From a virus (taxonomy: Duplodnaviria; Caudoviricetes): a stretch of 61,290 nucleotides of DNA. The notes under the pieces are model-generated. The model did not search any database, was not told the DNA's origin, and saw nothing but the letters and a program-made list of their open reading frames with translations. A program made the translations under genes and the position numbers. Position 1 is the first letter of the stretch. Each line of letters starts with the position of its first letter. The DNA lies in the IMG/VR virus record IMGVR_UViG_3300036668_000250, positions 1-61,290 of that record; one strand, written 5' to 3'. This document shows, one piece after another, positions 5,407-61,145 of this stretch.

Positions 5407-5496
5407 AAACTTAATAATTTTTATTTTTGTTTCAATATAAAAGTTGATATACTAATGAATTACCAATAAAATCAAATAGGGATGGTGTTGTTTTTT

Positions 5497-7446
5497 ATGT
5501 CAATTATTGACAAAAACGGGTCTATTGTAGACCCTTACCGTAATTTTATTCATATTTCAAGATATAGCAGATGGCTAGAAGATAAAGGGCGCAGAGAAAC
5601 TTGGTCAGAAACAGTAGACAGATACATAGAGTTTATGAGGAATCATCTTCACAAAAACTTTAACTACAATAAAGATGACCCTAAGTTTGAAAAAGTCAGA
5701 GAGTATATTCTTAATCATCAAGTTATGCCGTCTATGAGGTCGCTAATGACTGCGGGTCCAGCACTAGATAGAGACCATGTATCCTCATACAATTGTTCCT
5801 TTTTGGCGGTAGACAGTCTAAGATCATTTGACGAAGCAATGTACGTCCTTATGAATGGTACGGGAGTAGGATTTAGCGTAGAGGAAAAGTATATTTCTCA
5901 ATTGCCTATTATTGCTGAAGAGTTCTATCCAACAGATACAACCATTGTTGTTGCAGATTCTAAACTTGGGTGGGCTAAAGCGTACAAAGAACTTATCAGC
6001 CTATTGGTCACAGGACAAATTCCCCAATGGGACATGTCTCAAGTTCGACCAGCAGGAGCAAGGTTAAAAACTTTCGGCGGTAGGGCGTCTGGTCCAGAGC
6101 CATTAAATGACCTGTTTAAGTTTACCGTAGAACAATTTAAAAATGCCTCAGGGCGCAGGCTAAAGCCCATTGAGGCCCATGACATCATGTGCAAGGTGGG
6201 GGAAGTGGTTGTTGTGGGAGGAGTAAGAAGATCCGCTCTTATATCACTATCCAACCTTGACGATTTCGAGATGGCTAAAGCAAAATCAGGTCAATGGTGG
6301 GAGTCAGAGCCGCAAAGAGCCTTGGCCAATAATAGTGCGGTATATAACATGAAGCCAAACACCGCTCAATTTCTCAGAGAATGGAGAAACCTGTATGAAT
6401 CAAAATCAGGTGAGCGTGGCATGTATAACATGGACTCTGTAAGGAAGCATGTTGATAAGTTTGGCAGAAGAGATTCTTCTAAAATTGCAGGAACCAACCC
6501 CTGTGGTGAAATATTGTTGCGATCAAATCAATTTTGCAACCTTACTGAAGTTGTCATTGAAGAAAAAGATGACTTTGACTCTCTTCAAGAAAAAATACAG
6601 ATTGCTACTATCCTGGGAACTTGGCAATCCACTCTAAGCAACTTTAAATACATTAGAAAAACATGGAAAGATAATACAGAGCAAGAAAGGCTATTGGGTG
6701 TATCTCTTACTGGAATTTTTGGCAACAAGTTAACGGGCACAATTCATAAAAATTTGCCTAGTATGCTTGATAGCCTTAGAGAATCTGCTGTGCAAGCAAA
6801 TGCTGTAGAGGCAGACACTCTAGGCATTGAGCATTCCGCCGCTGTCACCACAGTAAAGCCTAGCGGTACAGTTTCTCAGTTGACTGGTGTCTCCTCTGGT
6901 ATCCACCCTTGGTATTCGGAGCATTACATTAGGACTGTTCGTGCAGACAACAAGGACCCACTAACTCAATTTCTTAAAGATTTTGGTGTACCCAATGAAC
7001 CAGACGTTATGAAGCCAGATGCCACAACTGTTTTTTCTTTTCCCGTTAAGGCACCCAAGAACGCGGTGGTAACAAAAGACCTTTCTGCCATCGACCACCT
7101 TGAAATCTGGAAGGTATACAGAGAGCATTGGACAGAGCACAATCCTTCTGTTACGGTAAACATAAAAGAAGATGAGTGGATCGAAGTAGGGGCATGGGTT
7201 TACAAGAACTTTGACTCTATTGGAGGGGTTTCGTTTCTTCCAGCATCTGAGCATAGTTACAAGCAAGCGCCATATCAAGAAATAAACGAAAAAGAATACA
7301 AGGACCTTTTAGGTAAAATGCCTAAAAACATTCCCTGGCAATCCCTTCCACTCTATGAATTAGAAGATACAACTAGTGGATCTCAGGAATTATCTTGCAC
7401 AAGTGCCTTAGGGTGCGAGGTAGTAGATTTAGTCGAAACAGTATAA
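5497..7446 (+). CDS. nrdJ: Class II (adenosylcobalamin-dependent) ribonucleotide reductase
   Basis: PSMRSL, YNCSF, GTGVGF, VVVGGVRRSALI, TNPCGEI, TTVKPSGTVSQL motifs and C-terminal Cys pair; start could be 5482. Confidence 0.92.
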   Translation: MSIIDKNGSIVDPYRNFIHISRYSRWLEDKGRRETWSETVDRYIEFMRNHLHKNFNYNKDDPKFEKVREYILNHQVMPSMRSLMTAGPALDRDHVSSYNCSFLAVDSLRSFDEAMYVLMNGTGVGFSVEEKYISQLPIIAEEFYPTDTTIVVADSKLGWAKAYKELISLLVTGQIPQWDMSQVRPAGARLKTFGGRASGPEPLNDLFKFTVEQFKNASGRRLKPIEAHDIMCKVGEVVVVGGVRRSALISLSNLDDFEMAKAKSGQWWESEPQRALANNSAVYNMKPNTAQFLREWRNLYESKSGERGMYNMDSVRKHVDKFGRRDSSKIAGTNPCGEILLRSNQFCNLTEVVIEEKDDFDSLQEKIQIATILGTWQSTLSNFKYIRKTWKDNTEQERLLGVSLTGIFGNKLTGTIHKNLPSMLDSLRESAVQANAVEADTLGIEHSAAVTTVKPSGTVSQLTGVSSGIHPWYSEHYIRTVRADNKDPLTQFLKDFGVPNEPDVMKPDATTVFSFPVKAPKNAVVTKDLSAIDHLEIWKVYREHWTEHNPSVTVNIKEDEWIEVGAWVYKNFDSIGGVSFLPASEHSYKQAPYQEINEKEYKDLLGKMPKNIPWQSLPLYELEDTTSGSQELSCTSALGCEVVDLVETV

Positions 7447-7505: not shown

Positions 7506-10500
7506 ATGTCTGTAACTTCCAATCAGTATGCTACTAAAATATTTTCTCAACACCCTATAGCGTGTTGGCCTCTAGACGAAGATGCTTACTATGTTTCTTT
7601 ATCAAAAATAGACGATCTGGATATATTTTCTTGGAACATTGACAATGGAGTTGTAGAGTCAGACCCAACAACACCAAATCAACAGTCCCCTTTCAAAAAT
7701 CAGTCCGAATATTCTAAAATAGAAGTAGACGACTACTCCCTGATCTCTTCATCGGGATATGTCGTTGAAGCAGAATCTTTGCCATTGTTTCCTTTAAACA
7801 AACTTAATTCAGATTTAAAAAACTTTCATTTAAATGTTTTTATATATCAAGATTGTTTGTTTATTGATTCTTACGACATAGGGGTCAAGTATTGGGACTT
7901 CTCCACCTCCTCAGAAAAGATTGTCTTTAAAAACAAAAACTTTCCTGTTATTAGAGAATGGAAAACTCTTTCTGCAACGATAGATAACCCTGATTACCAA
8001 ACAATATCCATAAGTGCATCAGGCTTAGAGGACAGTAATGTTATAACGGTGTTGGATGCCTCTAATCTCTCCCCTGGAGTTTTTGTTGTAGGAGAAAGCA
8101 TTCCTCAAAACACATATATTGTTTCTATTGTTGGAAATTCTGTTACTATTAGCGACAACGTTTCCGATGATTTTTCTGAAAATCTTGTTTTTGTTCCAGG
8201 GGTGTCTGCTTTTATTAAATTCAACTTAATCGAAGGTGGTGGGAACAATGAAGACTATTCTTTTATATTGCATGGTTTGTCAGTTGGACAATGGTCAGAA
8301 CAGTTTTGCTTTAAGTCCCTGGGAATATTCGATCAACAAGAATCCTTGAAGTTTTTTTTACAAAACGCCACCACCTACGAAGCATTTCAGTACGGAAAGT
8401 CAACAGACAAGGCATACTATGTAATTGAAGACAACGCTCTTATTGCAAAGAATGAAGGCATCCCTATGGTCTTTGGATCAGAGAATGTAACTAGACTATA
8501 TCCTTCTAAATATTCAAACCCATCTTTGGTTTTCCCTGGTGAGGGGATGTTTTCAAATTCAGGTAAAAATAATTCATACACTCTAGAGTTTTGGTTGAGA
8601 ATACGACCAAACAACAAGAAAGAAATAAAAATATTCGGACCACTAAATTCTAAAGACGGTTTGTATGTATCTGAAGGGTTTGTCACTCTTTCTGTTAATG
8701 GAATGGTAAAAAGTTTCAATGTTAACGAATGGTATAGGCCCATGCTGGTTAACATAGTTTATTCTCCAGGTAGTTACGAGATGTTTATTAATGGGGAAAA
8801 CGTTTTGCAGTTAGTTTTTGACTTAGGGTTTTCTTCAATTGAAGAAAATAATTGGCTTGGTTTTTTCGGTAACACAAAAATTGATGTTTTTGAAGTAGAT
8901 TGCATATCTATTTTCCCTTATCAGGTGCCACTTCAGGTTGCAAAGATAAGGTTAATTTGGGGGCAGGGGACTGATTCAGAAGAAAATATTGACAACTCTT
9001 TTAAGGGTAAGCCTTATTCAATATCTTTTCCAAATGCAAAATATGATGTCAACTCAATATATCCAGACAAAGAACGATGGGATGCTGGATATTACAGAAA
9101 CCTAGTCGCAAACACAAAATCCATATCTACCCCTGAGTACTCTTTGCCAGAAATATTTCTAAGTGGTAGAGGTTTAGACTTGTGGTACCTAGACAATAAA
9201 GTTGTCAATGATTTAGAGTACCCAAGCAACGACCATCCTAAATTTATTACGTTTCGGCCAAATTTAAACGAGCAGGGTACGGAGTGGCAAGCAGACGGAC
9301 CCAATTGGATAGAAAAGTGTTACTTCAAGTTTTCCAACTCAACCATTATTTCTTCACCAGTATCTGCATTCTATTCAGTTTTTGAAATAAACGAAAATAT
9401 ATCAGATGACAGGATGTTGGTAAGTTTTGTCAATTCTTTAAATGGCAAAAGATTTGATATTAAAGTTTCCTCATATGAGGTTTCTTATATTTTTAATGGA
9501 CAAGAAATATTCTCCTTTGACGCATCAGGTCAGGACCACATCATAGTCGGAATTCATATACCAACGGTATCTGAAATTTTTGGTTACGAAATTTCAAACT
9601 TCTTCTCTTCTTTTGAAAATTTAAACGTTTACGTTGGTGGTGCTCCTGACACCCCTGATGAAATTATTAAAACTTTCGAAGGTAAGATTTATAAAGTTTC
9701 CTTTATGGAAGAATACGCTTATGAGGAATTGCAAGAGCACTTCAGCAGCCAGGGAATTGTTGACTACACTAAAGACGATTTGTTTATTGATTATTACTCA
9801 ACTTATAGCATGAAGCCTTTTGATAAGTTTAATAGTTTCTTCTTAGACATATCCATTTCATCTTATTGGGAAGAGTATTTTCCCTTAACCTATTTTTGTA
9901 AAAATATTAAAGATATAAACGATGAAGAGTACTACGGATTTGACTTTTTGCAATTTAATGTTGGCTACCCCTCAATACTAGAAAAGAAAACATTTATTGT
10001 AGATGGAGAGGAGTGGGTAAACTACTTGGAATTTCAAGACTACTACAACTACCCTATATCCTATGACTATTCTTTTTTGCAAAATACAATAGTTTCCGGG
10101 TTCACTGATTACCAAAGTTTAATAAACAATGACTATCCCGCTACAAGTTATGCATCATCTGATTCATCCCTAAAGGCTTACGCAACTTTTCAAACAATGT
10201 CTAATAATGTAAAAGAGCCATTAAAGACTTTTGCATATGAAAAATATATTCAAAGCAATCTCCTTGTTGACGCATCTATAGATCAAGAGATAGATCCATT
10301 TCTTCCTTACGGAACTAAATATCAATTAGTTGATGGTGCCATCATATATCCTCCAACATATATAGATATAGAAAATATTGCCATTGTTATTCATTTTGAC
10401 GTTAAACAAGAAATGATATTAAAAAATAAACTGATTGTTCGTAACATGGAGTTTTCCTCTAAAGCATTGAATCATAAACAAACTAATCCGATAGGAACAA

Positions 10501-11375
10501 AGTCTGGAAGAGACCTGTACCCTTACACCAAAACAGGAATATATTATTCATATAAAGAAAAAAATCCTATAAGAATATACAAAAAAGACACTCCATACCT
10601 ATATCTAACCGAAAATAGCGGTATCCAGGTTATTAAGTTTAACCAAGGGATAAAGGAACGAGGTGTTTTGATTCCAGTAAACGAACCACGAGAATCAAAT
10701 TATTATCTAGGAGCCTTGCAAATGTTTGTTAAGGATGAGTCCCCCCCGATCTCATACGATGGATACCCTATTTTTGAAATAGACAATGGGGACGCAATAA
10801 TAGAGTTTTTTTATAAGTTTGATTCAACAAATAAAAGAAAAAAGATTTTTGCAAAAAACAAAAACACTCAACAAGATTTTAATAAAATAATTTTTTATCA
10901 AAACGGAATGCAAACAGAAAATCCAGTTTTGTATCCTGATCAATGGAATGCAATCTCCGTTCTCTTTCAAGATCCCATTAATTTTTCCAATAGGTCTGGA
11001 TCAATTAATGTTTTTGCAGGATTCACCTTTAACAATATTTCAGAATATAGGCCAGAGGGTCTGGTAGAAATTGCTAATATTGTTCCAAGAAGTTGGCTAG
11101 AAGTTTATACCCCAGACAGCGGAATAACATTCAATGACTGGAGATACTGGTACAACGAGGATCAATCATCTGCTTTTCAAACATGGAAAGACGTTTTGGT
11201 TAACTTGGGCGAGGAATCTTACGGGATTAGCCCAGAAAACATCTATGAAGCGTATACGGGGACCAACATTAACGTAGTAGATGATGGTTTTGGTATAACA
11301 ATGAACAACAATGACCCCTCTATATCAATTTTTAGTGACATTGTGTGGTCAAGTTTCTCAGGAAAACCCTCATAA
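7506..11375 (+). CDS. Large virion structural protein with LamG/ConA-like domain
   Basis: 1289 aa; YATKIFSQHPIACWPLDE start and YTLEFWLR..EWYRPMLV..MFING motifs. Confidence 0.6.
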   Translation: MSVTSNQYATKIFSQHPIACWPLDEDAYYVSLSKIDDLDIFSWNIDNGVVESDPTTPNQQSPFKNQSEYSKIEVDDYSLISSSGYVVEAESLPLFPLNKLNSDLKNFHLNVFIYQDCLFIDSYDIGVKYWDFSTSSEKIVFKNKNFPVIREWKTLSATIDNPDYQTISISASGLEDSNVITVLDASNLSPGVFVVGESIPQNTYIVSIVGNSVTISDNVSDDFSENLVFVPGVSAFIKFNLIEGGGNNEDYSFILHGLSVGQWSEQFCFKSLGIFDQQESLKFFLQNATTYEAFQYGKSTDKAYYVIEDNALIAKNEGIPMVFGSENVTRLYPSKYSNPSLVFPGEGMFSNSGKNNSYTLEFWLRIRPNNKKEIKIFGPLNSKDGLYVSEGFVTLSVNGMVKSFNVNEWYRPMLVNIVYSPGSYEMFINGENVLQLVFDLGFSSIEENNWLGFFGNTKIDVFEVDCISIFPYQVPLQVAKIRLIWGQGTDSEENIDNSFKGKPYSISFPNAKYDVNSIYPDKERWDAGYYRNLVANTKSISTPEYSLPEIFLSGRGLDLWYLDNKVVNDLEYPSNDHPKFITFRPNLNEQGTEWQADGPNWIEKCYFKFSNSTIISSPVSAFYSVFEINENISDDRMLVSFVNSLNGKRFDIKVSSYEVSYIFNGQEIFSFDASGQDHIIVGIHIPTVSEIFGYEISNFFSSFENLNVYVGGAPDTPDEIIKTFEGKIYKVSFMEEYAYEELQEHFSSQGIVDYTKDDLFIDYYSTYSMKPFDKFNSFFLDISISSYWEEYFPLTYFCKNIKDINDEEYYGFDFLQFNVGYPSILEKKTFIVDGEEWVNYLEFQDYYNYPISYDYSFLQNTIVSGFTDYQSLINNDYPATSYASSDSSLKAYATFQTMSNNVKEPLKTFAYEKYIQSNLLVDASIDQEIDPFLPYGTKYQLVDGAIIYPPTYIDIENIAIVIHFDVKQEMILKNKLIVRNMEFSSKALNHKQTNPIGTKSGRDLYPYTKTGIYYSYKEKNPIRIYKKDTPYLYLTENSGIQVIKFNQGIKERGVLIPVNEPRESNYYLGALQMFVKDESPPISYDGYPIFEIDNGDAIIEFFYKFDSTNKRKKIFAKNKNTQQDFNKIIFYQNGMQTENPVLYPDQWNAISVLFQDPINFSNRSGSINVFAGFTFNNISEYRPEGLVEIANIVPRSWLEVYTPDSGITFNDWRYWYNEDQSSAFQTWKDVLVNLGEESYGISPENIYEAYTGTNINVVDDGFGITMNNNDPSISIFSDIVWSSFSGKPS

Positions 11376-21019: not shown

Positions 21020-31400
<10,381 letters not shown>

Positions 31401-31411
<11 letters not shown>

Positions 31412-32012
31412 ATCATACATGCAGGGCAGATATGCATTTTTAAAGGGCGGGACACGACCTCAGGCAATGCTGTGGGCCAATAACCCAGGCACAACACAAG
31501 ACTCTTATCATGTACCAGAAGGCGACGAAGGCAGTGACTTTATCATTGTTTCGGATCACAATAGATCAGAACTTTCTTTTTCTCAAAATAGAATTGAGAC
31601 ACGAGAAAGAATGCTTAACGGCAATATGAGGTCTTACTGGATCGCAGATAAATTAAATGTTTCCTGTTCGTGGAATAGGCTGCCATCTAGGTCCTTTGAT
31701 CAATCAGTAAGTTTTGACTCAGATGGCAAGGTTGTGGAAAGCAATTACACATCTTATACCGTAGACGGTGCTGCTGGCGGAGGAGACATGTTGTTTTGGT
31801 ATGAATCTCATCCAAATCCCTTTTATCTTTATCTGTCTTATGACAAATACAACTCTGAAAGTTTATCCGACAATAACAGGCTTCACACTTATGGTCAGAT
31901 CATAAAGGTTTATTTTTCTAGTTTTGATCATTCTGTAGAAAAAAGAAGCGGAATGTTAAATAGCAACGGATTTGACTTTTGGAACGTGAGCATTGCTTTG
32001 GAAGAGGCGTAA
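31401..32012 (+). CDS. Distal tail (Dit)-like protein
   Basis: Directly after tape measure; RERMLNGNMR..K..VSCSW..LP and WNVSIALEEA; GTG 31401 after AAGGAG. Confidence 0.65.
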
Positions 32013-35000
32013 TGTTTAATTCTGAAGAGTTAAGCCATCATTTACAGACATCTGAAACCATAGTAAACAAGTCTTTAATTTTTGCAGAGTGGAATTTGAA
32101 CGATCCAGAAAATATTAAAAGACTGGGAAACTACAGGTATCGACCAAGTTATTCTGCATCCCCATATTACTTAATACCTATGAATTATGATGACTATGAC
32201 TTAGGAAACTACTATACGGGGGCAACTGACTCAGACACAGTTATTGAGAGTGGGCTGAACAGTCAGGACGAACCAACTCTTTTTGTTGATAAAAAAAGAA
32301 AAATGGAAATGCTCTTTTCTTTAGAAGAATGCATTAAACCGTTTAGGCCAAGATCAGGGATCAACAAAGTTCTTTATCTTAATCAGTTTATAGATGATGC
32401 AAGGGGAAGCGGATCAAGAAGACCTAGATACTACATGGCCTCTAAAGATGATCAGTTCAAGTACTGGACCTCCTTTAGAACAGAAAAGGGAACCCCCACA
32501 CCCTATTCTGGTCAAACCGTCAGCAATGCAGAGTCGGAGATTGTTCGAGGGCTATCGTTTTATGATTCTGTCAGCAATAGAAATTATATAGAGGACGCTG
32601 CTCCATTTGTTGTGTATAAAGAACCTGTACCCACCAACAAAATAGTGATAAAAATGCAGACAAACACGGGCGAAGAAAATCTAGGAAACCTTAGGTATGG
32701 TCAACAGAAGACAATTGAAGATCCACTATACGGTGAAAAAAATAGGTCTACTCCTAAAAAATGGAGGATAGAGGTATTAAAAGAAAATTCATGGATTACC
32801 GCAATATCCTTTGATGAGCAGAGTGCCAGAAGAGACGGATCAGAAATAATTAAACATGATGGTTATCTTGAGGTTTCTTATGGGCTAAAGATACCAGAAA
32901 GATTTTCTCAGTTTAACTACCTTGGACAAATTTCTAGTGAGTCAATCCTTCCCGATACATCAGACCCTGGTGATGCATTCTTAATTAAAGAAAACGAAAA
33001 CTCCAGAGGAGTCATCTTTATATATGAAGATAACTCGTGGCAACAGTTTACTCCAGAGTATGGGTGGCAATTAACAGATGAAGAAATAAAAAATAAAACA
33101 CTAGTTGCTAAGGAGTTGTCCGACCCTGACTTCTTTGTAGAAAACAATATTGATTTTTTTAGAGAGTTTGAGTTTATAGACGGTATCAGAATTGTTGTTC
33201 AGACAATGAATAAAAAGAATTGTACCTTTGACCTCATAGAATTTTCTCCTAGACTATTTGCTGAAATCACAGAAAAAGTCAAAGAATTTTCTGTTAAAAA
33301 AACTATGGCAGATATGGGAAATAGTTCCCTGCCAGTTGACGGCCTTTACGCTTCAACGGGGTCAATTTCTTTAATGGACGAAGACTTTTCTTTTAATGAA
33401 AACAATGTTTTTGATATTGAAAAAAATAAAGGTAGTATAGTTTACAAATATCTTAACAAGAATATAAAGTTTATCTTTTATGAAAACATTAAGGATCAAG
33501 ACAATGATTTTTATATCCCGATCAAAACACTGTACTCTTCAGGATTGCCTCAAACGCAATCGCCATTGTCTAATGTTTCAGTAGACTTGAGAGACTTTTT
33601 CTTTTTTTTAGAACAGTCCAGAGCGCCACAACTATTCTTGACAGATATCTCTTTAAGTAATGCTGTTTTAATTTTATTAGACTTTATAGGATTTAGCAAT
33701 TATCAATTTAAAAGAATTACGTCAGAAGAAATAGTTATTCCATATTTTTTTGTTGAGCAAGGTCAGAATGTTGCAGAAGTTTTACAAAAACTAGCAAGAG
33801 CGAGTCAGACCACAATGTTTTTTGATGAGTATAATAACTTAAACATTTTTTCAAAAGAATACGTTTTGCCCCAAAACGAAGATGATCGTGAATCAAGCGG
33901 GTACATCCTGGGGGATATTTATGCAGAATCAAGCAATGATCAACTTTACAAGGTCATTGATTTTTTCTATGAAATAGAGAGCCTGCCCCCAGAACACTAT
34001 GATGGTGCCTTTATTAGTCATATAGATGACGGAATATACGTTTGGTCTGAACAAAGTATGCAATGGGTCAAGACTGATTTAGCGAAAAAAATATTGCAGC
34101 CTAACGTTATTGCCTTGTCTTCAGCAGAAAAAAGAGTTTTTAATGATGGACAAATTAACTATACAACAAGATATTTACAAAGATCTATTGGATCAACAAG
34201 TGCTGCTTTAAAGATAGATGAATATAAAAACTATATATACAAGCCAGTTCTTTTGTGGGAGGCTTCGGGCAGCACCAACAGGCAAACAATTAATGAACTG
34301 GCAGGGCAATCGTCTGGTTTAGTTTTGGGGGCTATCCCCCTTGGATCTAATTTAACAGATGCAGAACCCTACTCATTTAACAATGAAATATATAACAACA
34401 TTATCGATCTTGGAGAAAACGTTTATTGGACAACAAATTATCAAGGTTATTTTTACTCTTCGGGGGAAGTCATAAAATATGACGCAATAGAGTACTCCGT
34501 TTCAGGATTAAGTAAATCTGTTTGGATCTCTAGTAATCAGCAATATCAAGATTACTTTTCCAAATTGAAGTTTAATGGAAAAATGTATCCAACAGGACGA
34601 GTAAGAATTTACTGTCAGCCAGAGTTTGTGATGAATAACGAAGAGTTAAGGATCAAGGATGCAAGGCCAATTCTAGTAAATGGTAGAGGGCAATTCGGAA
34701 CCACCATTGTTTCACATTCGGCGGGAATAGATGAAGATAGTCACTGGAGGAATAATCAGAACGTATACGGGTCTATTCAGGAAGCGTCTTCCTTTTTGTT
34801 TGATTTTAGCAAGTACACAGGCTATCCAATAAATCTTGAAAACTCCAACTGTGGAAAAACAAAAGTTATTGGAGATAACACATATGTTGCAGACAACATA
34901 GCGCGGTCATCGTTAAGGCATGGTCTAATTAAAAACTTCTTGGCAGACAAAAATTTTACAGAGTCAGAATTAAGTTACAGAAAAACAACAGAGCCTGGGG

Positions 35001-36883
35001 CCATTCAATCGTCTGCTTTAGTTTTTTCGGGTCCAGAAGTTTCAGAAACCCTTGGAGCACAAAACTTTGTCTCCCATGTGTATAAAGATTTTTTTGATCA
35101 GAACAATGCATCAATTCCATACAAGCATTATGGAACAAGAATGAGAGTTATTGGAAAGGTAGAGTCTGGAACTAACAAGAAGCAAACTCCGTCAAACGCT
35201 TTTTCGGTATATACGGGTGGAGTTGATGTCGATGCTGGACAAGAAGCGGCTCCTGCTGAGCCACAAACCACAGAGCAATCTGTTTTTATCTACGGTGGAT
35301 CGGGAGGATTGGCGATTAATGTGGATAAAGAAAAAAACACTGGATATTATTTTGAAATTTTAGCATTAACCTCGGACACAATAGAAGACTACGTTGGTGA
35401 AAATAATTTAACAACTTCTACTGCAAGGATATCCTTAGAAACGCCTCCTCAAACAGTTAACACCCAAGTATATTGTTGGACAGAGGAAGAGTTTGATTTA
35501 GTGGTTGGGCAAACCATCGTGGTAACAGGGCTTACTGATGCCAATGATCCAGAGGACGACGGCACTTTGTTAAACGGAGAGTACATTGTGTCCTATGTTG
35601 CAGAAAATAAAAAATATTTTGCATATAATATTGGAGTTGAGTTAGACACAACGTCAACAACAGGGGGTAGAGTGTCAACGGTAATAGATGACGAAATTCA
35701 ATTGGCAAATGTATTTTTTTATAAAGTAGTTGCAGATGAAAATGGTAACGCAATTCCTTATAAATTGTGGACAGGGCTATCTGCAATAAATGTTGATTCT
35801 GGAGACTTTTACGGCCAGTCCAGAATATTTGGGGAGGCGGCTACAACTGTATACGATTTGGCAGCAGAGTACGTTAACTCTGGCTCTACAAGAACATTTT
35901 ACCTATACTTAAATGATAAGCAGGTGGCCGTTGTTGAAGACGTTGAACCGCTAGAAGAAAAAAATTCTGTTGCCCTTTTTGTAAGGGGGAGCAGTAAGTG
36001 TATGTTCGAAAACGTTTACGCTCTATCTCAAAACTATTCTCAAAACTCTGTTTTTTCTGTTCAGGATGGGGTGTCGGACGTCTTTGGTGATCAAGAGATA
36101 AACGTAACAGAAGCGTTTAGAAAATATTCAATAAGCGGAATTATTCAAAACACTTACTTGTCAGGAATAAGTTCTTTAGAAGATCCAAAATATAGAATGT
36201 ATTTTGAAGAATTTGGTTCAATAATGAGAGAGGCAGCATACTTTAATGTTCTTTACGATAGAGCCTTTCCTGCACTTTACGCAAAATTAATGAAAACTCA
36301 AAATCATCTTAAGGGGTATACGGTCTCTGGGTTCTATGCATGGTCATACGGCGCTGAGTTTTTAATATTTAATTCGACTGACTTTGCTATAGCGCTAGAC
36401 GACACCAGTGGGAATTATTTGAGAATAATGGGGGTGGCGTTTACGCAAAGTACAAGTAATACTATAAGTGTTGACGACTTGTATAAGAAAAGATCTAATC
36501 TATTAGACAACAGGCTGGGTAGTAGCAATGTCTTATCAAATTCATTAAATGTTGATCAAGAATACAATAGAATTAAAAACAGTAGGGATAAGTTTGGTAA
36601 GAATGATTTAATAATAGAAACCCCTTACATTCAGACTACTGACGCTGCTGAAGAAGTTTTTAGTTGGATCATAGATAAGGTGTCTAAGCCAAGACAAATA
36701 TTTGGAATAAAAACTTTCGGCACCTTCAATTTGCAACTTGGGGATATTGTTAAGGTAAAGTTGCAGAACAACGATGGGATAAACGTTTTGTCACAAGATG
36801 AAAAAAGATTTGTAATATATCAAATAGATTATTCTAGAAGCAACTCTGGCCTAGAGTTAACCTCCTATTTGGTGGAGGTGTAA
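32012..36883 (+). CDS. Large tail tip/hub (central fibre-like) protein
   Basis: ~1620 aa; VLQKLA..MFFDEYNNL hub motif and C-terminal IETPYIQ..LQLGDIV; TAATG-coupled start. Confidence 0.7.
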   Translation: MFNSEELSHHLQTSETIVNKSLIFAEWNLNDPENIKRLGNYRYRPSYSASPYYLIPMNYDDYDLGNYYTGATDSDTVIESGLNSQDEPTLFVDKKRKMEMLFSLEECIKPFRPRSGINKVLYLNQFIDDARGSGSRRPRYYMASKDDQFKYWTSFRTEKGTPTPYSGQTVSNAESEIVRGLSFYDSVSNRNYIEDAAPFVVYKEPVPTNKIVIKMQTNTGEENLGNLRYGQQKTIEDPLYGEKNRSTPKKWRIEVLKENSWITAISFDEQSARRDGSEIIKHDGYLEVSYGLKIPERFSQFNYLGQISSESILPDTSDPGDAFLIKENENSRGVIFIYEDNSWQQFTPEYGWQLTDEEIKNKTLVAKELSDPDFFVENNIDFFREFEFIDGIRIVVQTMNKKNCTFDLIEFSPRLFAEITEKVKEFSVKKTMADMGNSSLPVDGLYASTGSISLMDEDFSFNENNVFDIEKNKGSIVYKYLNKNIKFIFYENIKDQDNDFYIPIKTLYSSGLPQTQSPLSNVSVDLRDFFFFLEQSRAPQLFLTDISLSNAVLILLDFIGFSNYQFKRITSEEIVIPYFFVEQGQNVAEVLQKLARASQTTMFFDEYNNLNIFSKEYVLPQNEDDRESSGYILGDIYAESSNDQLYKVIDFFYEIESLPPEHYDGAFISHIDDGIYVWSEQSMQWVKTDLAKKILQPNVIALSSAEKRVFNDGQINYTTRYLQRSIGSTSAALKIDEYKNYIYKPVLLWEASGSTNRQTINELAGQSSGLVLGAIPLGSNLTDAEPYSFNNEIYNNIIDLGENVYWTTNYQGYFYSSGEVIKYDAIEYSVSGLSKSVWISSNQQYQDYFSKLKFNGKMYPTGRVRIYCQPEFVMNNEELRIKDARPILVNGRGQFGTTIVSHSAGIDEDSHWRNNQNVYGSIQEASSFLFDFSKYTGYPINLENSNCGKTKVIGDNTYVADNIARSSLRHGLIKNFLADKNFTESELSYRKTTEPGAIQSSALVFSGPEVSETLGAQNFVSHVYKDFFDQNNASIPYKHYGTRMRVIGKVESGTNKKQTPSNAFSVYTGGVDVDAGQEAAPAEPQTTEQSVFIYGGSGGLAINVDKEKNTGYYFEILALTSDTIEDYVGENNLTTSTARISLETPPQTVNTQVYCWTEEEFDLVVGQTIVVTGLTDANDPEDDGTLLNGEYIVSYVAENKKYFAYNIGVELDTTSTTGGRVSTVIDDEIQLANVFFYKVVADENGNAIPYKLWTGLSAINVDSGDFYGQSRIFGEAATTVYDLAAEYVNSGSTRTFYLYLNDKQVAVVEDVEPLEEKNSVALFVRGSSKCMFENVYALSQNYSQNSVFSVQDGVSDVFGDQEINVTEAFRKYSISGIIQNTYLSGISSLEDPKYRMYFEEFGSIMREAAYFNVLYDRAFPALYAKLMKTQNHLKGYTVSGFYAWSYGAEFLIFNSTDFAIALDDTSGNYLRIMGVAFTQSTSNTISVDDLYKKRSNLLDNRLGSSNVLSNSLNVDQEYNRIKNSRDKFGKNDLIIETPYIQTTDAAEEVFSWIIDKVSKPRQIFGIKTFGTFNLQLGDIVKVKLQNNDGINVLSQDEKRFVIYQIDYSRSNSGLELTSYLVEV

Positions 36884-44294: not shown

Positions 44295-44954
44295 GTGTCT
44301 ATTTTAAAAGGATTAAAGGAAATGGAAAAGGCTTTGGTTCGACCCGCTGCTTCGTCTGAGGGTGGGCTTAAGGTTAGATGGCTAAAGTTGGATGATCAGC
44401 AAAGTGCAAAGATTCGCTTTATTAACGAACTTGACGAAGATTCTCCACACTATGACCCAGAAAGAGATCTGGCCATTGTTGTTTCTGAGCACTCAAACCC
44501 CAAGGATTACAAGAGAAAGGCTGTCTGTACCGTAGATAGCGAAGGACGTTGCTTTGGGTGTGAGATGGCGAGAAAGGAGCCTAAGAGCGGGTGGAGAGCA
44601 CGATTCCGGTTTTACATCAACCTTCTGGTAGATGACGGCCTTGAAGATCCATACGTTGCTGTTTGGTCTCAGGGTGTTGGGAAGCAGTCCGCGTTCAACA
44701 CTTTGCGGGAGTATGCCGTAGATACTGGCTCTATTGGAAATAGAACTTGGAGAATGAAGCGTCAGGGCACAGCCACAGACACCACCTACATCCTTCTCCC
44801 AGGTGACCCCGATACAGAGAAGTACGATTGGTCTGGCGTAGAGCCTTTTAATCTCGAAAAGGTTGTTCGAGAAGTTCCATACGCTGAGCAAGAGGCATTT
44901 TATCTAGGGTTTGATGCCCCAGCACAAAGCAATAATACAAACATTGACTGGTAG
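44295..44954 (+). CDS. Single-stranded DNA-binding protein (gp32-like)
   Basis: WLKL..KIRF, H..C..CFGC zinc-like motif, C-terminal IDW; between primase and polymerase. Confidence 0.65.
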   Translation: MSILKGLKEMEKALVRPAASSEGGLKVRWLKLDDQQSAKIRFINELDEDSPHYDPERDLAIVVSEHSNPKDYKRKAVCTVDSEGRCFGCEMARKEPKSGWRARFRFYINLLVDDGLEDPYVAVWSQGVGKQSAFNTLREYAVDTGSIGNRTWRMKRQGTATDTTYILLPGDPDTEKYDWSGVEPFNLEKVVREVPYAEQEAFYLGFDAPAQSNNTNIDW

Positions 44955-44986
44955 AGGTGTGGCCCCAGGAAACTGGGGCACATCTA
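44952..44986 (+). promoter_or_regulatory. GNRA hairpin between ssb and dnaE
   Basis: GCCCCAG-GAAA-CTGGGGC core with bulged extension; no T tract. Confidence 0.5.
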
Positions 44987-45002
44987 AAGGGATTGGACTA
45001 TA

Positions 45003-46289
45003 GTGGAAAATCACAATTATCAAGCGTTGCACCTGCATACTGACATGGGGTCACTTATGGATGGGGTAGCCACGCCAGAAGAGTACGCCGACCGCGCATC
45101 AGAAATTAAGATGTCTGCTATAGCATGTACTGATCATGGAAGCCTTTCTGCTCACAGAAGGTTTTATCGAGCAGCAAACAGCAGGGGAATAAAGCCTATT
45201 CTAGGGGTAGAAGCATACATTACTGGAGATAGGTTTGATAAAAGAGATAAGTCTGAAAGAACAACTCCCCTAGACCTTGTTTACAACCACATAGTTATAT
45301 TGGCAAAAAATGATCAAGGGCTTGAGAACCTTAATCGTCTCAATGAAATAGCCTGGAATGAAGGTTTTTATAGAAAGCCAAGAATTGATTTTGAAGTCTT
45401 AGAGAAGTACCGTGAGGGTCTTATCGTTTCCTCTGCCTGCATGTCTGGGCTGCTTAATAAGGCGATTGAGGTTGATGACTACGCCGCAGCAAAGGCACAC
45501 CTTAATTGGTTTGGAGAAAGGTTTGGGGATGACTTTTATGTAGAGATAATGCCACACAATGTTAAGGGCATGAACAAGTCATTGATAGAGTTGGCAGATG
45601 CCAACGGTCACAAGATCATTGTCACTCCAGATTGTCACCATGCGACGGTAGATCAAAAAGTTATCCAAGAGATCATGTTAATCAACAACACTCATGCAAA
45701 GGTTCAGAAGGATACCTCTTACGAAAAGTCTAGGAAAATTGAAGACCCCATGAAAAGACTTGACTATCTTTATGGGGAAGGGCGAATGATGTCATTTAAT
45801 AAGTTTGACATTCACCTCCTTTCAGGTCAGGAAATGCACAAGGCAATGGGAGAAGACTCTCGAACAGATATGTTTGAAAACACTAATGAGATTGCCAATA
45901 AGGTAGAAGAGTATACGATGCATCGCAACCTTAACCTGTTGCCTGTGGAGCATAAGAATCCAGATGATCAGATCAGAAAGAACTGCTTTTCTTGGCTGAA
46001 GGACAAGGGGCTTGAGGAAAATGAAGAGTATGTAGGCAGACTTGAAGAAGAACTTGACGCTATTAAACAGAAAAGGTTTGCGTCATACTTTATTGTTGTT
46101 CAGAACATGATTAACTGGGCAAAGAAAAATGACATCATGGTTGGCCCAGGGAGAGGTAGTTCTGCTGGATCTTTGGTTTGCTATGCTTTAGGCATCACCG
46201 ACATTGACCCCATTAAGCATGGTTTGCTATTTTTTAGATTTATTGATGGTGGTTCTGCTCAATACGATCCAAAGTTTAATGTGATATAA
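45003..46289 (+). CDS. dnaE: DNA polymerase III alpha, N-terminal part (PHP domain to GRGS motif)
   Basis: [65 protein letters not shown], then stop. Confidence 0.92.
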
Positions 46290-46296
46290 TTTAAAC

Positions 46297-47085
46297 ATGG
46301 GTATAGATACTGATGTTCAAAAACAAATAAAAAGTTTGTACTTAAGTGGAAACTCAGGACATAAAATTTCTCAAATAACTGGTATCTCTAGTGGAACGGT
46401 GTACAATTATCTAAAACTATTAGGCATAACTAGGTCCAATAAAATAAACTCCAGAAAATATTCTTTAAATCATGAGTATTTTTCAGAAATAGATTTAGAG
46501 CATAAAGCCTACTGGCTAGGATTTATTCAAGCCGACGGATATCTTCTGACTGGCACTCCCGGAATTGGAATTGCACTAGCAGAGGTGGACAGGGGGCATC
46601 TAGAGAAATTTAAAAACAGTATTGAGGCCGATTATCCAATAAAAACATATAGGGGGAATGGGTATTCTCAAAACGATTATGTCAGGATAATAGTTAAAAG
46701 TGAAAAAATGTGGAACGATTTAAACAATCTGGGAGTTACTCCCCAAAAAACAAAAACAACGCTTCCCATAAAAGTAGATAAAGGACTTGAGCGGCATTAT
46801 ATTCGTGGTTTAATGGATGGGGACGGCTCAATAAAAATAAGTAAAAGTTCAAAGGCTGGGTATCGTGGAGACTTTGTTTCTGCCACTCCAGAAATGGCTA
46901 CATATATTGCAGACGCCCTTGGAAAGGGTGCAGTAAGATTTGATAAAAACAAAAATGTTTGGTACAGTGAATTTACTCTAACAATAAAGAATTTGGACTA
47001 TTTATATGACGAAGCAACTGTCTATCTTTCAAGGAAACATGCAAGAGCGGTTCTCGGAAGATCTAGAATTTCAAAAGTTAGTTAA
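46297..47085 (+). mobile_element. Free-standing LAGLIDADG homing endonuclease with N-terminal HTH, inserted in dnaE
   Basis: AYWLGFIQADG and YIRGLMDGDG motifs; own -10 TGATATAAT 46282-46290. Confidence 0.88.
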
Positions 47086-49321
47086 GTTAGTAGAAGAGTC
47101 AAAAAAAGATTTTGATATATCTTGGGCAAGTGACGAACTTTACGCTATCGGCAGACTAGGTATGTCTAATTATTTTTTGGAACTTCTTGGGAAAAGAGTA
47201 GACAATCCAAATCATTCGACGGTAGCCTATGCAATTGGAGTTACTGGTGACCGACCTACATCCTATCCCGTAGGTCTTGTTGTAGACCGTGGAAGAGACG
47301 ACGCTGCCGATATTGACTCAGACATAATGGATAGCCGACGCGAGGAGGTAAAGGGCTACCTGGAGTCTCAATATAAGCACGTTGCATCCATTGCCACTTT
47401 CCTTCAATTTAAGGATAAGGGTGTTGTTCGAGATGTGGCAAGATGCTTTAACATTCCTCTAGCAGATGTTAATCGTGTGCTAAAAACGGTTGATACATGG
47501 GAAGAGTTTACTACTTCTAAAAATACATTTTGGTTTAGAGAAAAGTATCCAGAGGTGGAAGTTTATGGAGATCAGTTAAGGGGTAGAGTAAGAGCAACAG
47601 GTGTCCACGCAGCAGGTGTTGTCACCTCAAAAATTCCCATTAGCAAGGTTGCCCCCATGGAAACTAGAAGTGTGACTGGTAGCACCAGCAGACTTCCTGT
47701 GGTTGCAATAGACATGGACGAAGCAGCAGACATTGGCCTAATTAAGATTGATGCTCTGGGACTAAAGACTCTCACTGTGATTAGCGATACTCTCAAGGTT
47801 GTTAAAGATAGACACGGGAAGAAGATAGACCTGCATTCGATAAACATGGAAGATCCAAACGTGTACTCCATGCTTTCCGATGGCCATACAAAGGGTGTGT
47901 TTCAGTGTTCTGCTGCCCCATACACAAGCCTATTGATAAAAATGGGGGTACGCAAGTTTGATGAACTTGTAGCGTCCAACGCTCTTGTTCGTCCAGGTGC
48001 TATGAACACCATTGGAAAAGAATACATATCCAGAAAGTATGGTAAAAGTAATGTGGTGTATTCAACCCCGATTATGAAAAACTTTACAGAAGAAACCTAC
48101 GGAACAATTTTGTATCAAGAGCAGGTTATGCTTGCCTGCATAAATGTTGGTGGCATGACTATGGGCGAAGCAAATAAGGTTAGAAAGATTATTGGCAAAA
48201 AGAAAGACGCCCAAGAGTTCGATCAATTTAAAGAGTTGTTTATTCGTAATGCTACTGCAAAAATAGGCAAGAAAGATGCTGAAAAAATGTGGCATGATTT
48301 TGAGGCACACGCGGGGTACTCTTTCAACAAGAGCCACGCTGTAGCATACTCAACCCTGTCTTACTGGACTGCATGGCTTAAGTATTACTACCCTATTGAA
48401 TTTGTCTTTTCTCTACTTAAAAATGAAAAGGACAAAGACATGCGTACAGAATATCTTATTGAGGCAAAAAGAATGGGCATACCAATTAAATTGCCACATA
48501 TTAATGATTCAGGCGCAGACTTTAAGATTGAAGGAAAGGGTATCCGATTTGGGCTTTCTTCAATTAAATTTATATCCGATACCATTGCTAAAAGATACAT
48601 TGAAAGCAGACCATTTAAGAGTCTAGAAGAGGTCAAGGGGTTCTCGTTTACCAAGGGTAGCGGAGTAAACAGTAGAGCGCTCAATGCCATGAACCTAATT
48701 GGCGCTCTAACCTTTCCAGACAATCCCATAGATGAAAAACAAGTTAAAGAAAACATGTACGAGTACCTAAATTTGCCAGAGTTTGTAACTCAGATTCCCC
48801 AGCACTACCATGCCCACATATCAACCGTTGAAGACTTTGACGAAAAGTCTGCTTTAATTTTGATGGGCATCGCTAGGGGGATAAAAAGAGGCAAGGGCTG
48901 GAGCAGAGTTGACATACTAGACTCTACTGGTGCTGTAGGAGTTTTTGATGATGAAGACACCTCCTTGGAACCAGGAAGGACGTACATCTTCTTAATTGGG
49001 TCTAATAGAATCCTAGAAGCAGTTCCTGTAGAAGATGTGGGTAAAAGTGATTCAGCGCTGGTACGGGCACTAAATTATAAGCAAGTACCATTCGGTGAAA
49101 AAGAGTATTTGGTTGTCAAAATCGCTCCACGCATAACTAAATCTGGGTCAAGAATGGCTACGCTGATATTAATGACTCACGAGCGAGAATTTATTTCATG
49201 CATTGTGTTTCCTAGCAAATTCTCACAAATGTATGTTGGGTTACAGGAAGGATCGGCATATAAGATTGACTATAGCATTAATAAGGACGATGACCTTATT
49301 TTCCAAGATATTGTGCAATGA
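47006..49321 (+). CDS. dnaE: DNA polymerase III alpha, C-terminal part (catalytic Asp, fingers, HhH, OB)
   Basis: DIDSD, GVHAAGVV, KIDALGL, GVFQ, RPG, YQEQVM, YSFNKSHA, IRFGLSSIK; start 47006 or 47039 (AAGGA before 47039). Confidence 0.92.
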   Translation: MTKQLSIFQGNMQERFSEDLEFQKLVKLVEESKKDFDISWASDELYAIGRLGMSNYFLELLGKRVDNPNHSTVAYAIGVTGDRPTSYPVGLVVDRGRDDAADIDSDIMDSRREEVKGYLESQYKHVASIATFLQFKDKGVVRDVARCFNIPLADVNRVLKTVDTWEEFTTSKNTFWFREKYPEVEVYGDQLRGRVRATGVHAAGVVTSKIPISKVAPMETRSVTGSTSRLPVVAIDMDEAADIGLIKIDALGLKTLTVISDTLKVVKDRHGKKIDLHSINMEDPNVYSMLSDGHTKGVFQCSAAPYTSLLIKMGVRKFDELVASNALVRPGAMNTIGKEYISRKYGKSNVVYSTPIMKNFTEETYGTILYQEQVMLACINVGGMTMGEANKVRKIIGKKKDAQEFDQFKELFIRNATAKIGKKDAEKMWHDFEAHAGYSFNKSHAVAYSTLSYWTAWLKYYYPIEFVFSLLKNEKDKDMRTEYLIEAKRMGIPIKLPHINDSGADFKIEGKGIRFGLSSIKFISDTIAKRYIESRPFKSLEEVKGFSFTKGSGVNSRALNAMNLIGALTFPDNPIDEKQVKENMYEYLNLPEFVTQIPQHYHAHISTVEDFDEKSALILMGIARGIKRGKGWSRVDILDSTGAVGVFDDEDTSLEPGRTYIFLIGSNRILEAVPVEDVGKSDSALVRALNYKQVPFGEKEYLVVKIAPRITKSGSRMATLILMTHEREFISCIVFPSKFSQMYVGLQEGSAYKIDYSINKDDDLIFQDIVQ

Positions 49322-49365
49322 CAAACGCTAAAATAATAAAAAACGTTTGTGATATAATTAAAGAC

Positions 49366-49926
49366 ATGAGAACTGCAAAAGATATAGTGGTTGGAGATAT
49401 TGTTGGTACAATATTAATAACTAAAAAACAAATTGAGCCATATTATTCTAAGACTAGCATGATGTTCTATGGCATATGTGAAACATGCAATATTGAAAGA
49501 AAGTTATCTTCATCACATGTTGGAGTAATTTTAAGGGGACGAGGTGGTGGCTGCCATTGTAGTAGAAGGAGATCGGGAACAGATACAGAGTATAAGTGGA
49601 GATATCAAAGTTATGCTCAGGCCGCAAAAAAAAGAAATCTTGAGTGGGAACTAAGTTACGAGCAGTTTCTTGACGTAACTCAGCAAAATTGTTATTATTG
49701 TGGCATACAACCAGAAATGCGTCCATCTCACCACAAGAGATGGGGCTTTAAGTTCCCCATGTCCGGAATAGATAGAGTTGACTCAGCAAAGGGATATGTG
49801 GAAGAAAATATAGTGCCATGCTGCTCTCACTGCAATCAAGCAAAATGGGACCACAGCACCGAAGAATTTTTAGACTGGGTAAAAAGAATTTATACTAATC
49901 AATTTCAGGAGGTTGTTAATGCTTAA
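49366..49926 (+). mobile_element. Free-standing HNH homing endonuclease
   Basis: CYYCG..GIDRVDSAKGY..NIVPCCSHCNQAK; ATG 49366 is 7 nt after TGATATAAT (alternative start 49318). Confidence 0.8.
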
Positions 49927-54837: not shown

Positions 54838-55362
54838 ATGGGACAAGTTGTAGAGCATTTAGAAGAAGTCAACGCGGTAGCCTCTTACTATATAAAGGGG
54901 CTTAATGAATCAGAGATATCCAAGGAACTGGATATACCTAGGGCAAGAGTCTCCTCCCTTCTAAGGGAGTGGAAGACGATGGCCTCCAACTCTGAAGCGG
55001 TAAGGTCTAGGGCAAGAGAAGCCCTCTCCGCTGCCGACACCCACTACTCTGGGTTAGTGAAGCAGGCATATGAAGTGATTGATGAAGCGAATCAAAATGG
55101 TGCCCTTTCTGTAAAAAATCAAGCAATTAAACTCATCCTTGACATTGAGTCAAAAAGAATAGAAATGCTTCAAAAGGCGGGGCTTCTGGAAAACAAAGAA
55201 CTTTCTGATCAACTTATAGAAACAGAAAAGAAGCAAGCCCTGTTGATGAAAATTCTCACAGAGGTATCCTCTACATGCAAGGCATGTAAGCCACAGGTTC
55301 TTAAAAGACTTTCAGAGGCATCGGGCGATGATGGAGAGGCTATTGTGATATATGAGTCTTGA
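54838..55362 (+). CDS. HTH protein, probable terminase small subunit
   Basis: GLNESEISKELDIPRARV HTH; overlaps start of large terminase. Confidence 0.6.
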   Translation: MGQVVEHLEEVNAVASYYIKGLNESEISKELDIPRARVSSLLREWKTMASNSEAVRSRAREALSAADTHYSGLVKQAYEVIDEANQNGALSVKNQAIKLILDIESKRIEMLQKAGLLENKELSDQLIETEKKQALLMKILTEVSSTCKACKPQVLKRLSEASGDDGEAIVIYES

Positions 55363-60871: not shown

Positions 60872-61145
60872 CTGGAAGGATGAAGCAAAATGCTTGGACA
60901 TGGACACTAACTTATTTTTTGACAAGTATGAAGAAGACCCACACCTTGCTGGATCAGTAGACAACATATGCAAAAGGTGCCCCGTAAATAAACAATGTTT
61001 TGCATGGGGAATATCTAACAAAGAGTGGGGGGTATGGGGAGGGGTCTACCTCAAAGAAGGAAAGATTGATAAGGAGTTCAACGCCCACAAGGAAAAGGGA
61101 GACTGGTTTGATATTTGGGAGTCTTTGACGATGGAGACACAGTGA
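60864..61145 (+). CDS. whiB: WhiB-family transcription factor
   Basis: W...AKC..FF..ICKRCPV..C..GVWGG four-Cys pattern; TTG start at 60864 or 60852. Confidence 0.9.
   Translation: MRNWKDEAKCLDMDTNLFFDKYEEDPHLAGSVDNICKRCPVNKQCFAWGISNKEWGVWGGVYLKEGKIDKEFNAHKEKGDWFDIWESLTMETQ

Follow-up and report, generated by a model that had tools for sequence, protein, structure and literature searches.

How might a virus keep a working replicative polymerase when an endonuclease gene lies between the nucleotide-binding loop and the catalytic aspartates of that enzyme? The question is raised by a 61,290-nucleotide stretch of DNA from a salt-lake virus of the Caudoviricetes (IMG/VR record IMGVR_UViG_3300036668_000250; the whole stretch is referred to below as the window), in which dnaE, the gene for a C-family DNA polymerase, is found as two open reading frames (ORFs), DnaE-N and DnaE-C, on either side of a LAGLIDADG endonuclease gene. 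Comparative sequence analysis and structure prediction lead us to regard as probable that the two parts make a working two-chain polymerase by fragment complementation, without splicing of RNA or protein. A cassette of ~1.06 kb (46248-47308) lies in dnaE between the FFRFID codons and those of the catalytic DIDSD strand, and consists of 13 tail codons with a stop codon, an endonuclease gene with its own promoter-like box, and a new start codon followed by a 94-amino-acid extension and a 7-amino-acid linker. The chains of 428 and 771 amino acids would be translated separately and would associate non-covalently into an enzyme resembling the alpha subunit of DNA polymerase III (Pol III alpha), its composite active site drawing the GRGS loop from DnaE-N and the catalytic aspartates from DnaE-C. 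Tail and extension would serve as adaptors that make the split tolerable, whilst the endonuclease, or an HNH enzyme in sister cassettes, would home the whole cassette into unsplit dnaE alleles.

Anatomy of the divided gene

The layout of three ORFs (Table 1) is exactly as described in the initial annotation of this DNA, and both halves are, as stated there, long and intact. DnaE-N matches the PHP family of Pfam (E 2e-40) and positions 18-95 of the DNA_pol3_alpha profile, whilst DnaE-C matches positions 70-260 of that profile, the finger domain and HHH_6. The parts of a C-family catalytic subunit (PHP domain, palm with GS loop and three catalytic aspartates, fingers and helix-hairpin-helix (HhH) region) are complete over the two chains, and alignment to the unsplit DnaE of Streptomyces phage Gilson revealed no part lost from the split DnaE. 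Gilson also has the same gene order as is found here, namely helicase, primase, single-stranded DNA-binding protein, DnaE, MazG and RecA-like. When mapped onto solved structures, the DnaE-N core ends at residue 407 of 5LEW and residue 455 of 2HPI. The 13-residue tail, the gap between the DnaE-N stop codon and the endonuclease ATG (7 nucleotides) and the overlap of the endonuclease 3' end with DnaE-C (80 nucleotides) were all found as previously noted, as were DIDSD and KIDALGL on DnaE-C: the former starts at 47309 and the aspartate of the latter is residue 249 (47750-47752). It had further been claimed that FxRF lies just before the catalytic DxD in intact DnaE, and indeed the two are 7 residues apart in unsplit relatives; the spacing FRFI(D/N) + 7 residues + DID(S/T)D is identical in split and unsplit forms, so that the junction is exact.

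Table 1. Coordinates of the divided polymerase gene, its signals and other features of the window
Feature	Position	Strand	Remarks
DnaE-N ORF	45003-46289	+	428 amino acids
DnaE-N core (PHP domain and first palm part, including GRGS, up to FFRFID)	45003..46247	+	Pfam; N part of unsplit relatives 64-83% identical
GRGS	46149-46160	+	inside DnaE-N; FFRFID ends at 46247
Tail, 13 codons + TAA, start of cassette-specific sequence	46248..46289	+	tail type recurs in DnaE-N relatives
Extended -10-like box TG-n-TATAAT	46282..46290	+	6 nucleotides before endonuclease ATG; includes DnaE-N stop codon; putative promoter
LAGLIDADG endonuclease ORF	46297-47085	+	262 amino acids
Candidate dnaE-C promoter TTGATA-17-TACAGT with TG	46940..46968	+	consensus scan; within endonuclease 3' end; putative function
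DnaE-C ORF	47006-49321	+	771 amino acids
DnaE-C N-terminal extension, 94 amino acids	47006..47287	+	diverged copy of DnaE palm residues ~348-415, without GRGS loop
Linker RGRDDAA, end of cassette-specific sequence	47288..47308	+	cassette-type version of the 7 residues preceding the catalytic strand
DnaE-C core (DIDSD catalytic strand, thumb, KIDALGL aspartate, fingers, HhH, C-terminal domain)	47309..49321	+	Pfam; unsplit relatives 61-76% identical
Second free-standing nuclease gene	49318-49926	+	PHROG endonuclease VII / HNH types, E 3e-19
Class II (B12-dependent) ribonucleotide reductase-like gene	5482-7446	+	between structural and replication regions
1289-amino-acid ORF	7506-11375	+	just upstream of portal gene
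3463-amino-acid ORF	21020-31411	+	PhageMin_Tail, E 4e-27
1634-amino-acid minor tail protein	31979-36883		follows the 3463-amino-acid ORF
WhiB-family match	60873-61058	+	53.9 bits, above cut-off

The split arrangement is real and not an artefact of assembly, because it is held by four more loci at 99.6-100% identity (L003, L055, L070 and L074) and because the junctions are bridged in contigs from another three salt-lake runs, dated 2017 (X5-X7). A contig of a 2019 run (X9) ends at the DnaE-N stop codon. The contigs of the further runs gave no sign of a joined form lacking the cassette, such contigs being apt to drop rare variants. Among the sequencing runs found to contain the locus there was none of RNA.

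The middle ORF passes the Pfam cut-off for LAGLIDADG_3 (26.7 bits against 22.5), and two motifs of that type can be read in its translation ('...LGFIQADGY...' and '...GLMDGDGS...'). It also matches PHROG 4645 'endonuclease' (E 1e-48) and has a helix-turn-helix-like region at its N-terminus. Its closest annotated relative, 34% identical, is encoded by an annotated intron in dnaE of Bacillus phage 0305phi8-36. Another free-standing nuclease gene begins 4 nucleotides before dnaE-C ends; Gilson has an HNH gene upstream of dnaE rather than downstream.

Recurrence, origin and spread of the cassette

A peptide-pattern scan of IMG/VR with DnaE-C returned 48 loci, of which 42 hold both dnaE parts in one continuous frame and five end before the junction; the sole split locus (L003) belongs to the same phage as the window. 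A protein search with DnaE-N was restricted to lengths of 235-749 amino acids, and its best 120 matches were classified. Sixteen of these, the window's own included, end just past FRFID with a Y-type tail (GG-x-A-x-Y-x-P-x-F-x-V-x) and nine end with a W-type tail (GG-x-x-x-W-x-x-F-x-x-F), making 25 split tails among the best 120; the rest comprise 63 fragments of unsplit genes that continue into the catalytic strand, 25 proteins that end before the motif and seven other truncations or frameshifts. Since several of the split forms sit on contigs of 26-76 kb, they are not artefacts of contig ends. Degenerate tail patterns were used to recover the DNA of three diverged members of the family, and in all three the DnaE-C N-terminal extension is homologous to that of the window. 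One (L072, DnaE 55% identical) has a complete LAGLIDADG gene that is 53% identical to the one described here. Another (L073, DnaE 70% identical) retains only the last ~58 endonuclease codons, with ~100 nucleotides between the polymerase genes, and keeps both halves, the tail and the extension intact despite this remnant. The third (L076) has a W-type tail, and its gap is occupied by an HNH endonuclease gene (Pfam HNH_5, E 9e-12). The gap can hence be filled by a LAGLIDADG gene, by an HNH gene or by an endonuclease remnant alone, and the description of dnaE as split by a LAGLIDADG gene is correct for the window's copy and does not carry over to the family.

When a profile built from the four extensions was run against 1.84 billion representative proteins, it matched 42 clusters at E<=1e-3. 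In 36 of these the match starts within the first ~35 residues of a DnaE-C-like protein (20 of 689-1104 amino acids and 16 fragments), and five are multi-stretch matches in proteins that seem unrelated. The remaining match, a single chain of 1675 amino acids (P0178), carries GRGS, FSRF, a tail-like stretch, an extension-like stretch and DIDYD in one frame; it is either a fused descendant of the split gene or an unsplit ancestor with an insertion domain, and it hints at a second form of the adaptor pair, as a domain inserted in frame. Other searches found little: tblastn of the extension against 50,697 phage records gave no match at E<=1, so no phage of that collection has it, and a word-indexed search with the extension returned only the window's own protein. 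A degenerate tail pattern run on IMG/VR gave 17 matches (16 by chance and one from the same phage), and a peptide-pattern search of IMG/VR for relatives of the endonuclease found the same phage only. Judged by the tails and extensions counted above, the split is recurrent across many metagenomic phages.

Both peptides at the break are conserved. The tail is kept as amino acids among proteins 49-79% identical to the window's DnaE-N, and its ratio of non-synonymous to synonymous substitution rates (dN/dS) against L073 is ~0.2. For extension codons 28-95, comparison with L073 gave 22, 20 and 42 differences at the three codon positions, with dN 0.41 and a saturated dS of ~3 (ratio ~0.135), and the first methionine of the extension is kept in all three LAGLIDADG-type loci. 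By these measures the tail and the extension are under purifying selection, and we infer that they act as adaptor peptides. The extension can moreover be traced to dnaE itself. In unsplit relatives the DnaE-N match ends 78 nucleotides past the start of the DnaE-C match and in the same frame; one 26-residue segment of an intact DnaE is thereby matched twice, by residues 71-96 of DnaE-C and by residues 390-415 of DnaE-N. The two halves likewise overlap on the DNA_pol3_alpha profile (positions 70-95) and on the Thermus structure 2HPI (DnaE-N up to 455, DnaE-C from 429). The L076 extension by itself matches positions 60-115 of the profile (E 8.8e-8), and a multiple alignment brings extension and palm segment into helix-for-helix correspondence. 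On this comparison the palm segment with which DnaE-N ends is present a second time, in diverged form, as the extension. All four extensions (window, L072, L073 and L076) share a 13-amino-acid deletion, in which the helix before the GRGS loop is gone, and a replaced GRGS loop, which argues for a single origin. The linker RGRDDAA is common to the window and L073, the corresponding residues of unsplit relatives being x-[DEA]-R-[DNS]-D-x-P, and from DIDTD onwards L073 again follows the sequence of L040, its unsplit sister.

To see how split and unsplit alleles are related, a quick maximum-likelihood tree of 60 DnaE-N rows can be consulted, in which Gilson is the outgroup and the other rows are the window, 14 Y-type and nine W-type split proteins, 18 of the 42 unsplit IMG/VR loci, and 17 of the 63 unsplit fragments, hand-picked and mostly the longer ones. 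Split and unsplit alleles interleave on this tree, with 17 state changes where the minimum is two, and its starred branches force at least nine changes for the Y-type and at least seven for the W-type. Several sister pairs of a split and an unsplit allele are found at 99-100% support (e.g. P0014/L040, P0007/L021, P0011/L010 and P0002/L011). Because split alleles are scattered among unsplit ones in this way, the cassette is suggested to be mobile. Scatter on the tree together with a single origin of the extension is the pattern that would be expected of endonuclease-driven spread of one cassette; homing is what we infer from it, and from the site of the related 0305phi8-36 intron.

A broader reading is offered more tentatively, its chances in our estimation falling a little short of even: that tail, endonuclease and extension make up a distinct type of selfish element which, after introns and inteins, would have a third means of entering an essential gene without harming it. 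It would divide the polymerase at its active site and bring the means of repair with it, in the short tail and the diverged copy of the adjoining palm segment. By these the two chains would be locked together in reciprocal complementation: the true helix of DnaE-N would pair with DnaE-C's catalytic strand, and the strand-like tail of DnaE-N with the extension's pseudo-helix. The element would have arisen once, would have had its endonuclease swapped between LAGLIDADG and HNH types, and would be homing through the dnaE genes of many actinobacterial phages.

Splicing, decay and complementation weighed

An insertion that carries an endonuclease gene might be removed from the transcript. The insert would then be a group I intron with a LAGLIDADG gene, and RNA splicing would rejoin the dnaE exons; it is in favour of this that the endonuclease has its closest annotated relative in dnaE of 0305phi8-36, within an annotated 'mobile intron' whose site, between PPD and IDVDF, is one codon away from where the cassette ends on the right. 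The space available does not suit such an intron, however. Outside the endonuclease ORF there are just 49 nucleotides upstream and ~200 downstream, both coding, so that a ribozyme core of ~200 nucleotides or more is not accommodated; the non-coding sequence left at the break amounts to 7 nucleotides in the window and ~100 in L073, where the distance from the DnaE-N stop to the DnaE-C start leaves little room for an intron. The downstream stretch has an excess of third-position differences and a dN/dS of 0.135, the tail is conserved as amino acids in 25 proteins, and the extension is the N-terminus of called proteins in 36 clusters. Group I introns need a terminal G, and the in-frame junction (GAT|...|CGT) would make this one end in C. 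An Rfam scan of 44500-49800 at E<=10 gave chance-level matches only, and is non-informative as it missed the annotated 0305phi8-36 intron too. The insert is not an intron because both flanks of the endonuclease ORF read as conserved protein-coding sequence, which decides the matter; we give RNA splicing a very low probability, and the initial annotation's statement that there is no intron is borne out, computationally, by coding flanks under purifying selection.

Protein splicing has equally little to recommend it. In a 'fractured gene' the tail and the extension would be the halves of a split intein and would join DnaE by trans-splicing, and the order of half, free-standing endonuclease and half does fit such genes, of which 26 loci have been described, three of them DnaE (PMC2677866); inteins are also known in actinophage Pol III alpha (bioRxiv 10.1101/2025.01.02.630785). 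Set against this, Hint and intein families gave no match at E<=10 in any of the four extensions and none at E<=0.01 in the halves. The first residue of the tail is G, not C, S or A, and the residue that follows the extension is R or F, not C, S or T; His-Asn is absent before the junction, and neither TxxH nor the other Hint catalytic residues were found. Tail and extension come to ~108 amino acids in total, which is small for a Hint fold, and the extension is homologous to the DnaE palm rather than Hint-like. It is accordingly most improbable that the chains are rejoined as protein, and the earlier remark that neither half has intein splice residues holds good.

If the chains stay apart, the enzyme either works in two pieces or has been lost. 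The latter would mean a polymerase broken by a selfish endonuclease, now decaying or inactive, and a phage that replicates with host polymerases. Neither a family A nor a family B polymerase was found in the window by a search for these families, in keeping with the initial annotation's claim that no other polymerase is present there, and in four of four relatives that are 92-100% complete (~100 kb) there is one DnaE and no family A or B polymerase. Decay is at odds with the long, intact ORFs of both halves in four diverged lineages (window, L073, L076 and, as far as its contig reaches, L072), with the purifying selection seen on the tail and extension themselves, with the persistence of the split form after endonuclease decay in L073 and with its presence in several metagenome runs. 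Furthermore, in 15 Y-type DnaE-N proteins, 49-71% identical to that of the window, GRGS and many PHP-domain residues are invariant, which would not be expected of a decaying gene. The differences among near-identical variants (L003 and L070) do speak for decay, DnaE-C having 0 synonymous and 3 non-synonymous ones. On balance we hold loss of function to be unlikely, if less so than either form of splicing.

That the two chains bind each other is supported by co-folding, a check proposed with the initial annotation. DnaE-N and residues 1-560 of DnaE-C, each given as an alignment made for this analysis, reached an interaction prediction score from aligned errors (ipSAE) of 0.82 (0.83, 0.80 and 0.82 in the separate runs), and the best of three controls reached 0.00; the mark set for this score is attained by 58 of 80 solved complexes and by two of 110 mismatched pairs. 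The runs share at least 93% of contacts, and the partner has a predicted local distance difference test (pLDDT) value of at least 81. In the predicted complex, DnaE-N residues 378-389 (the GPGRGS loop) contact DnaE-C residues 100-108 (DIDSD) and 242-260, and the interface takes in the whole tail and extension residues 44-97. When DnaE-C was folded alone, the model (mean pLDDT 60, predicted template modelling score 0.40, residues 87-112 below 50 and extension helices at 71-84) was too weak to place the extension. The two-chain C-family polymerase that had been proposed, with GRGS on one chain and the catalytic aspartate on the other, is backed by the comparative evidence, its function being deduced from sequence. 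What that proposal had overlooked is that the tail and the ~95-amino-acid head of DnaE-C are conserved, that this head is a diverged duplicate of the palm, that the split is recurrent and its cassette apparently mobile, and that the endonuclease is interchangeable.

Several observations weigh against the two-chain enzyme and the origin and spread proposed for it. The co-fold result, for one, may reflect mere likeness to solved single-chain structures of Pol III alpha. The window represents ~57% of the genome, so that a second polymerase elsewhere in this phage is possible. Besides the variant counts given above, two of the DnaE-C changes (K511R and Y660H) affect alignment columns with conservation of at least 90%, and the DnaE-C ribosome-binding site is weak in the window (GGAC, as against GGAG in L072 and L073). 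The case for the duplication is modest within the window alone: in collinear, restricted shuffle tests 34 of 5000 protein shuffles and four of 2000 DNA shuffles did as well, whilst a narrow-family hidden Markov model test was not significant (1.1 bits for the real sequence, up to 7.4 bits for the best shuffles). Unrestricted Smith-Waterman comparison produced a spurious best alignment, equalled in 50 of 500 shuffles. Scatter on the tree, finally, could stem from recombination among dnaE alleles without endonuclease homing.

Known systems, expression signals and neighbouring genes

The closest parallel to a two-chain polymerase of this kind is the ribonucleotide reductase of phage Aeh1 (nrdA-a / mobE / nrdA-b), the one well-studied case of an endonuclease-broken gene that is functional, with its tails, without splicing. 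As here, a free-standing endonuclease gene splits an essential enzyme gene near the active site, neither RNA nor protein is spliced, and new C- and N-terminal tails are found at the break; the Aeh1 active site is a composite of two chains, and the two-chain enzyme requires the tails to which the mobE insertion gave rise (Crona et al. 2011, PMC3045599). The authors of that work predicted that tails of this sort could prove general, though difficult to find (PMC3045599). The present locus differs in that the enzyme is a C-family DNA polymerase, in that the endonuclease is of the LAGLIDADG type (HNH in sister cassettes), and in being known from sequence alone. Moreover, the N-terminal 'tail' is in this case a 94-amino-acid diverged duplicate of the enzyme's own palm, and not a short peptide of unknown origin, and the arrangement, which in the Aeh1 case is that of a single phage, is shared by a family that is large, diverse and apparently mobile. 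The fractured genes of Dassa et al. 2009 (PMC2677866) resemble it in gene order, in their occurrence on environmental phage-like contigs, in having DnaE among the hosts and in the different families of endonuclease found in the gap, and differ in the split-intein motifs and catalytic residues that are absent here. The endonucleases named in that paper are of the GIY-YIG and Vsr-like types, and its text does not contain the word LAGLIDADG.

According to its GenBank annotation, dnaE of 0305phi8-36 holds a homologous endonuclease (34%) in the same gene and within one codon of the same site, at the strand of the catalytic aspartate. There, in contrast to the window, the endonuclease ORF has ~75 nucleotides of non-coding sequence upstream and ~265 downstream, and the exons join as U|...G|, whereas in the window the sequence on either side of the ORF is coding and conserved, and the gene remains divided. 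The 0305phi8-36 intron contains, just upstream of its endonuclease ORF (L001 3979-4000), a near-copy of the first bases of exon 2, which are codons of the catalytic strand. Cyanobacteria likewise make a C-family catalytic subunit from two genes, by means of the DnaE split intein, but there dnaE is split at another site, its genes are at separate loci and the halves are covalently rejoined by trans-splicing (PMC2677866). In phage T4, a mobA-associated insertion splits topoisomerase into gp39 and gp60, another phage replication enzyme whose separate chains work (PMC3045599). These T4 proteins belong, as does gene 43, to other enzyme families than the polymerase considered here. Gene 43 is split in some T4-like phages, and its separate chains work; we know of no report of a duplicated host segment serving as an adaptor in the T4 split genes. 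A literature search, whose coverage left out most subscription journals and supplements, found no earlier report of a split dnaE with neither intein nor intron. What appears to be new is the enzyme, the position of the break, with the nucleotide-binding loop on one side and the catalytic aspartates on the other, and an adaptor that visibly derives from a duplicated segment of the host gene, and the size and diversity of the family and the swapping of its endonucleases appear to be new as well.

The locus represents a natural family with dozens of diverged members, in which a replicative polymerase is cut through its active-site region, and this family would allow one to ask which features make a protein splittable. 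That the extension derives from a duplication in the host gene suggests how an essential gene could undergo a fission that is neutral from the outset. The natural split site and its adaptor pair may be of use in engineering two-piece C-family polymerases. For annotation, it is of note that such halves are routinely named 'DNA polymerase III alpha' fragments or partial genes.

Several putative expression signals can be read in the sequence. TATAAT is found 6-7 nucleotides before the ATG, without a Shine-Dalgarno sequence, at the ORF starts 4864, 7506, 40138, 43103 and 46297, with a sixth case at 54838 (9 nucleotides), and this placement suggests leaderless transcripts, that of the endonuclease included. 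Leaderless mRNAs are common in actinobacteria. The -10 region of the candidate dnaE-C promoter reads TGGTATAGT in L073, where the endonuclease is dead; the predicted 5' end of a dnaE-C transcript is at ~46975. A GGAG/GGAC box lies 8 nucleotides before the DnaE-C start, within the 3' end of the endonuclease gene, and L073 keeps both this box and the promoter-like site. The 9-mer TTGGACTAT occurs only twice in the window (44993-45001 and 46993-47001, + strand), each time just before the start codon of a polymerase half, and was not found in L072, L073 or L076; its placement is unexplained, being due to chance or to matched translation signals, and it is not taken as a regulatory signal.

Because of the leaderless-type signals and a WhiB-like protein, the host is probably an actinobacterium, WhiB-family proteins being a hallmark of actinobacterial phages. 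The WhiB match taken together with the synteny with Streptomyces phage Gilson suggests, more narrowly, a low-GC actinobacterial host in salt lakes. Amongst the remaining genes of the window (Table 1), the 1289-amino-acid ORF upstream of the portal gene has TATAAT 7 nucleotides before its ATG and matched neither Pfam (E<=1e-5) nor PHROG (E<=1e-3). The 3463-amino-acid ORF has a phage minor-tail or tape-measure domain; it is very long for such a protein, and the tail would be expected to be very long too. It is followed by a gene for a minor tail protein, and a ribonucleotide reductase-like gene of class II lies between the structural and replication regions.

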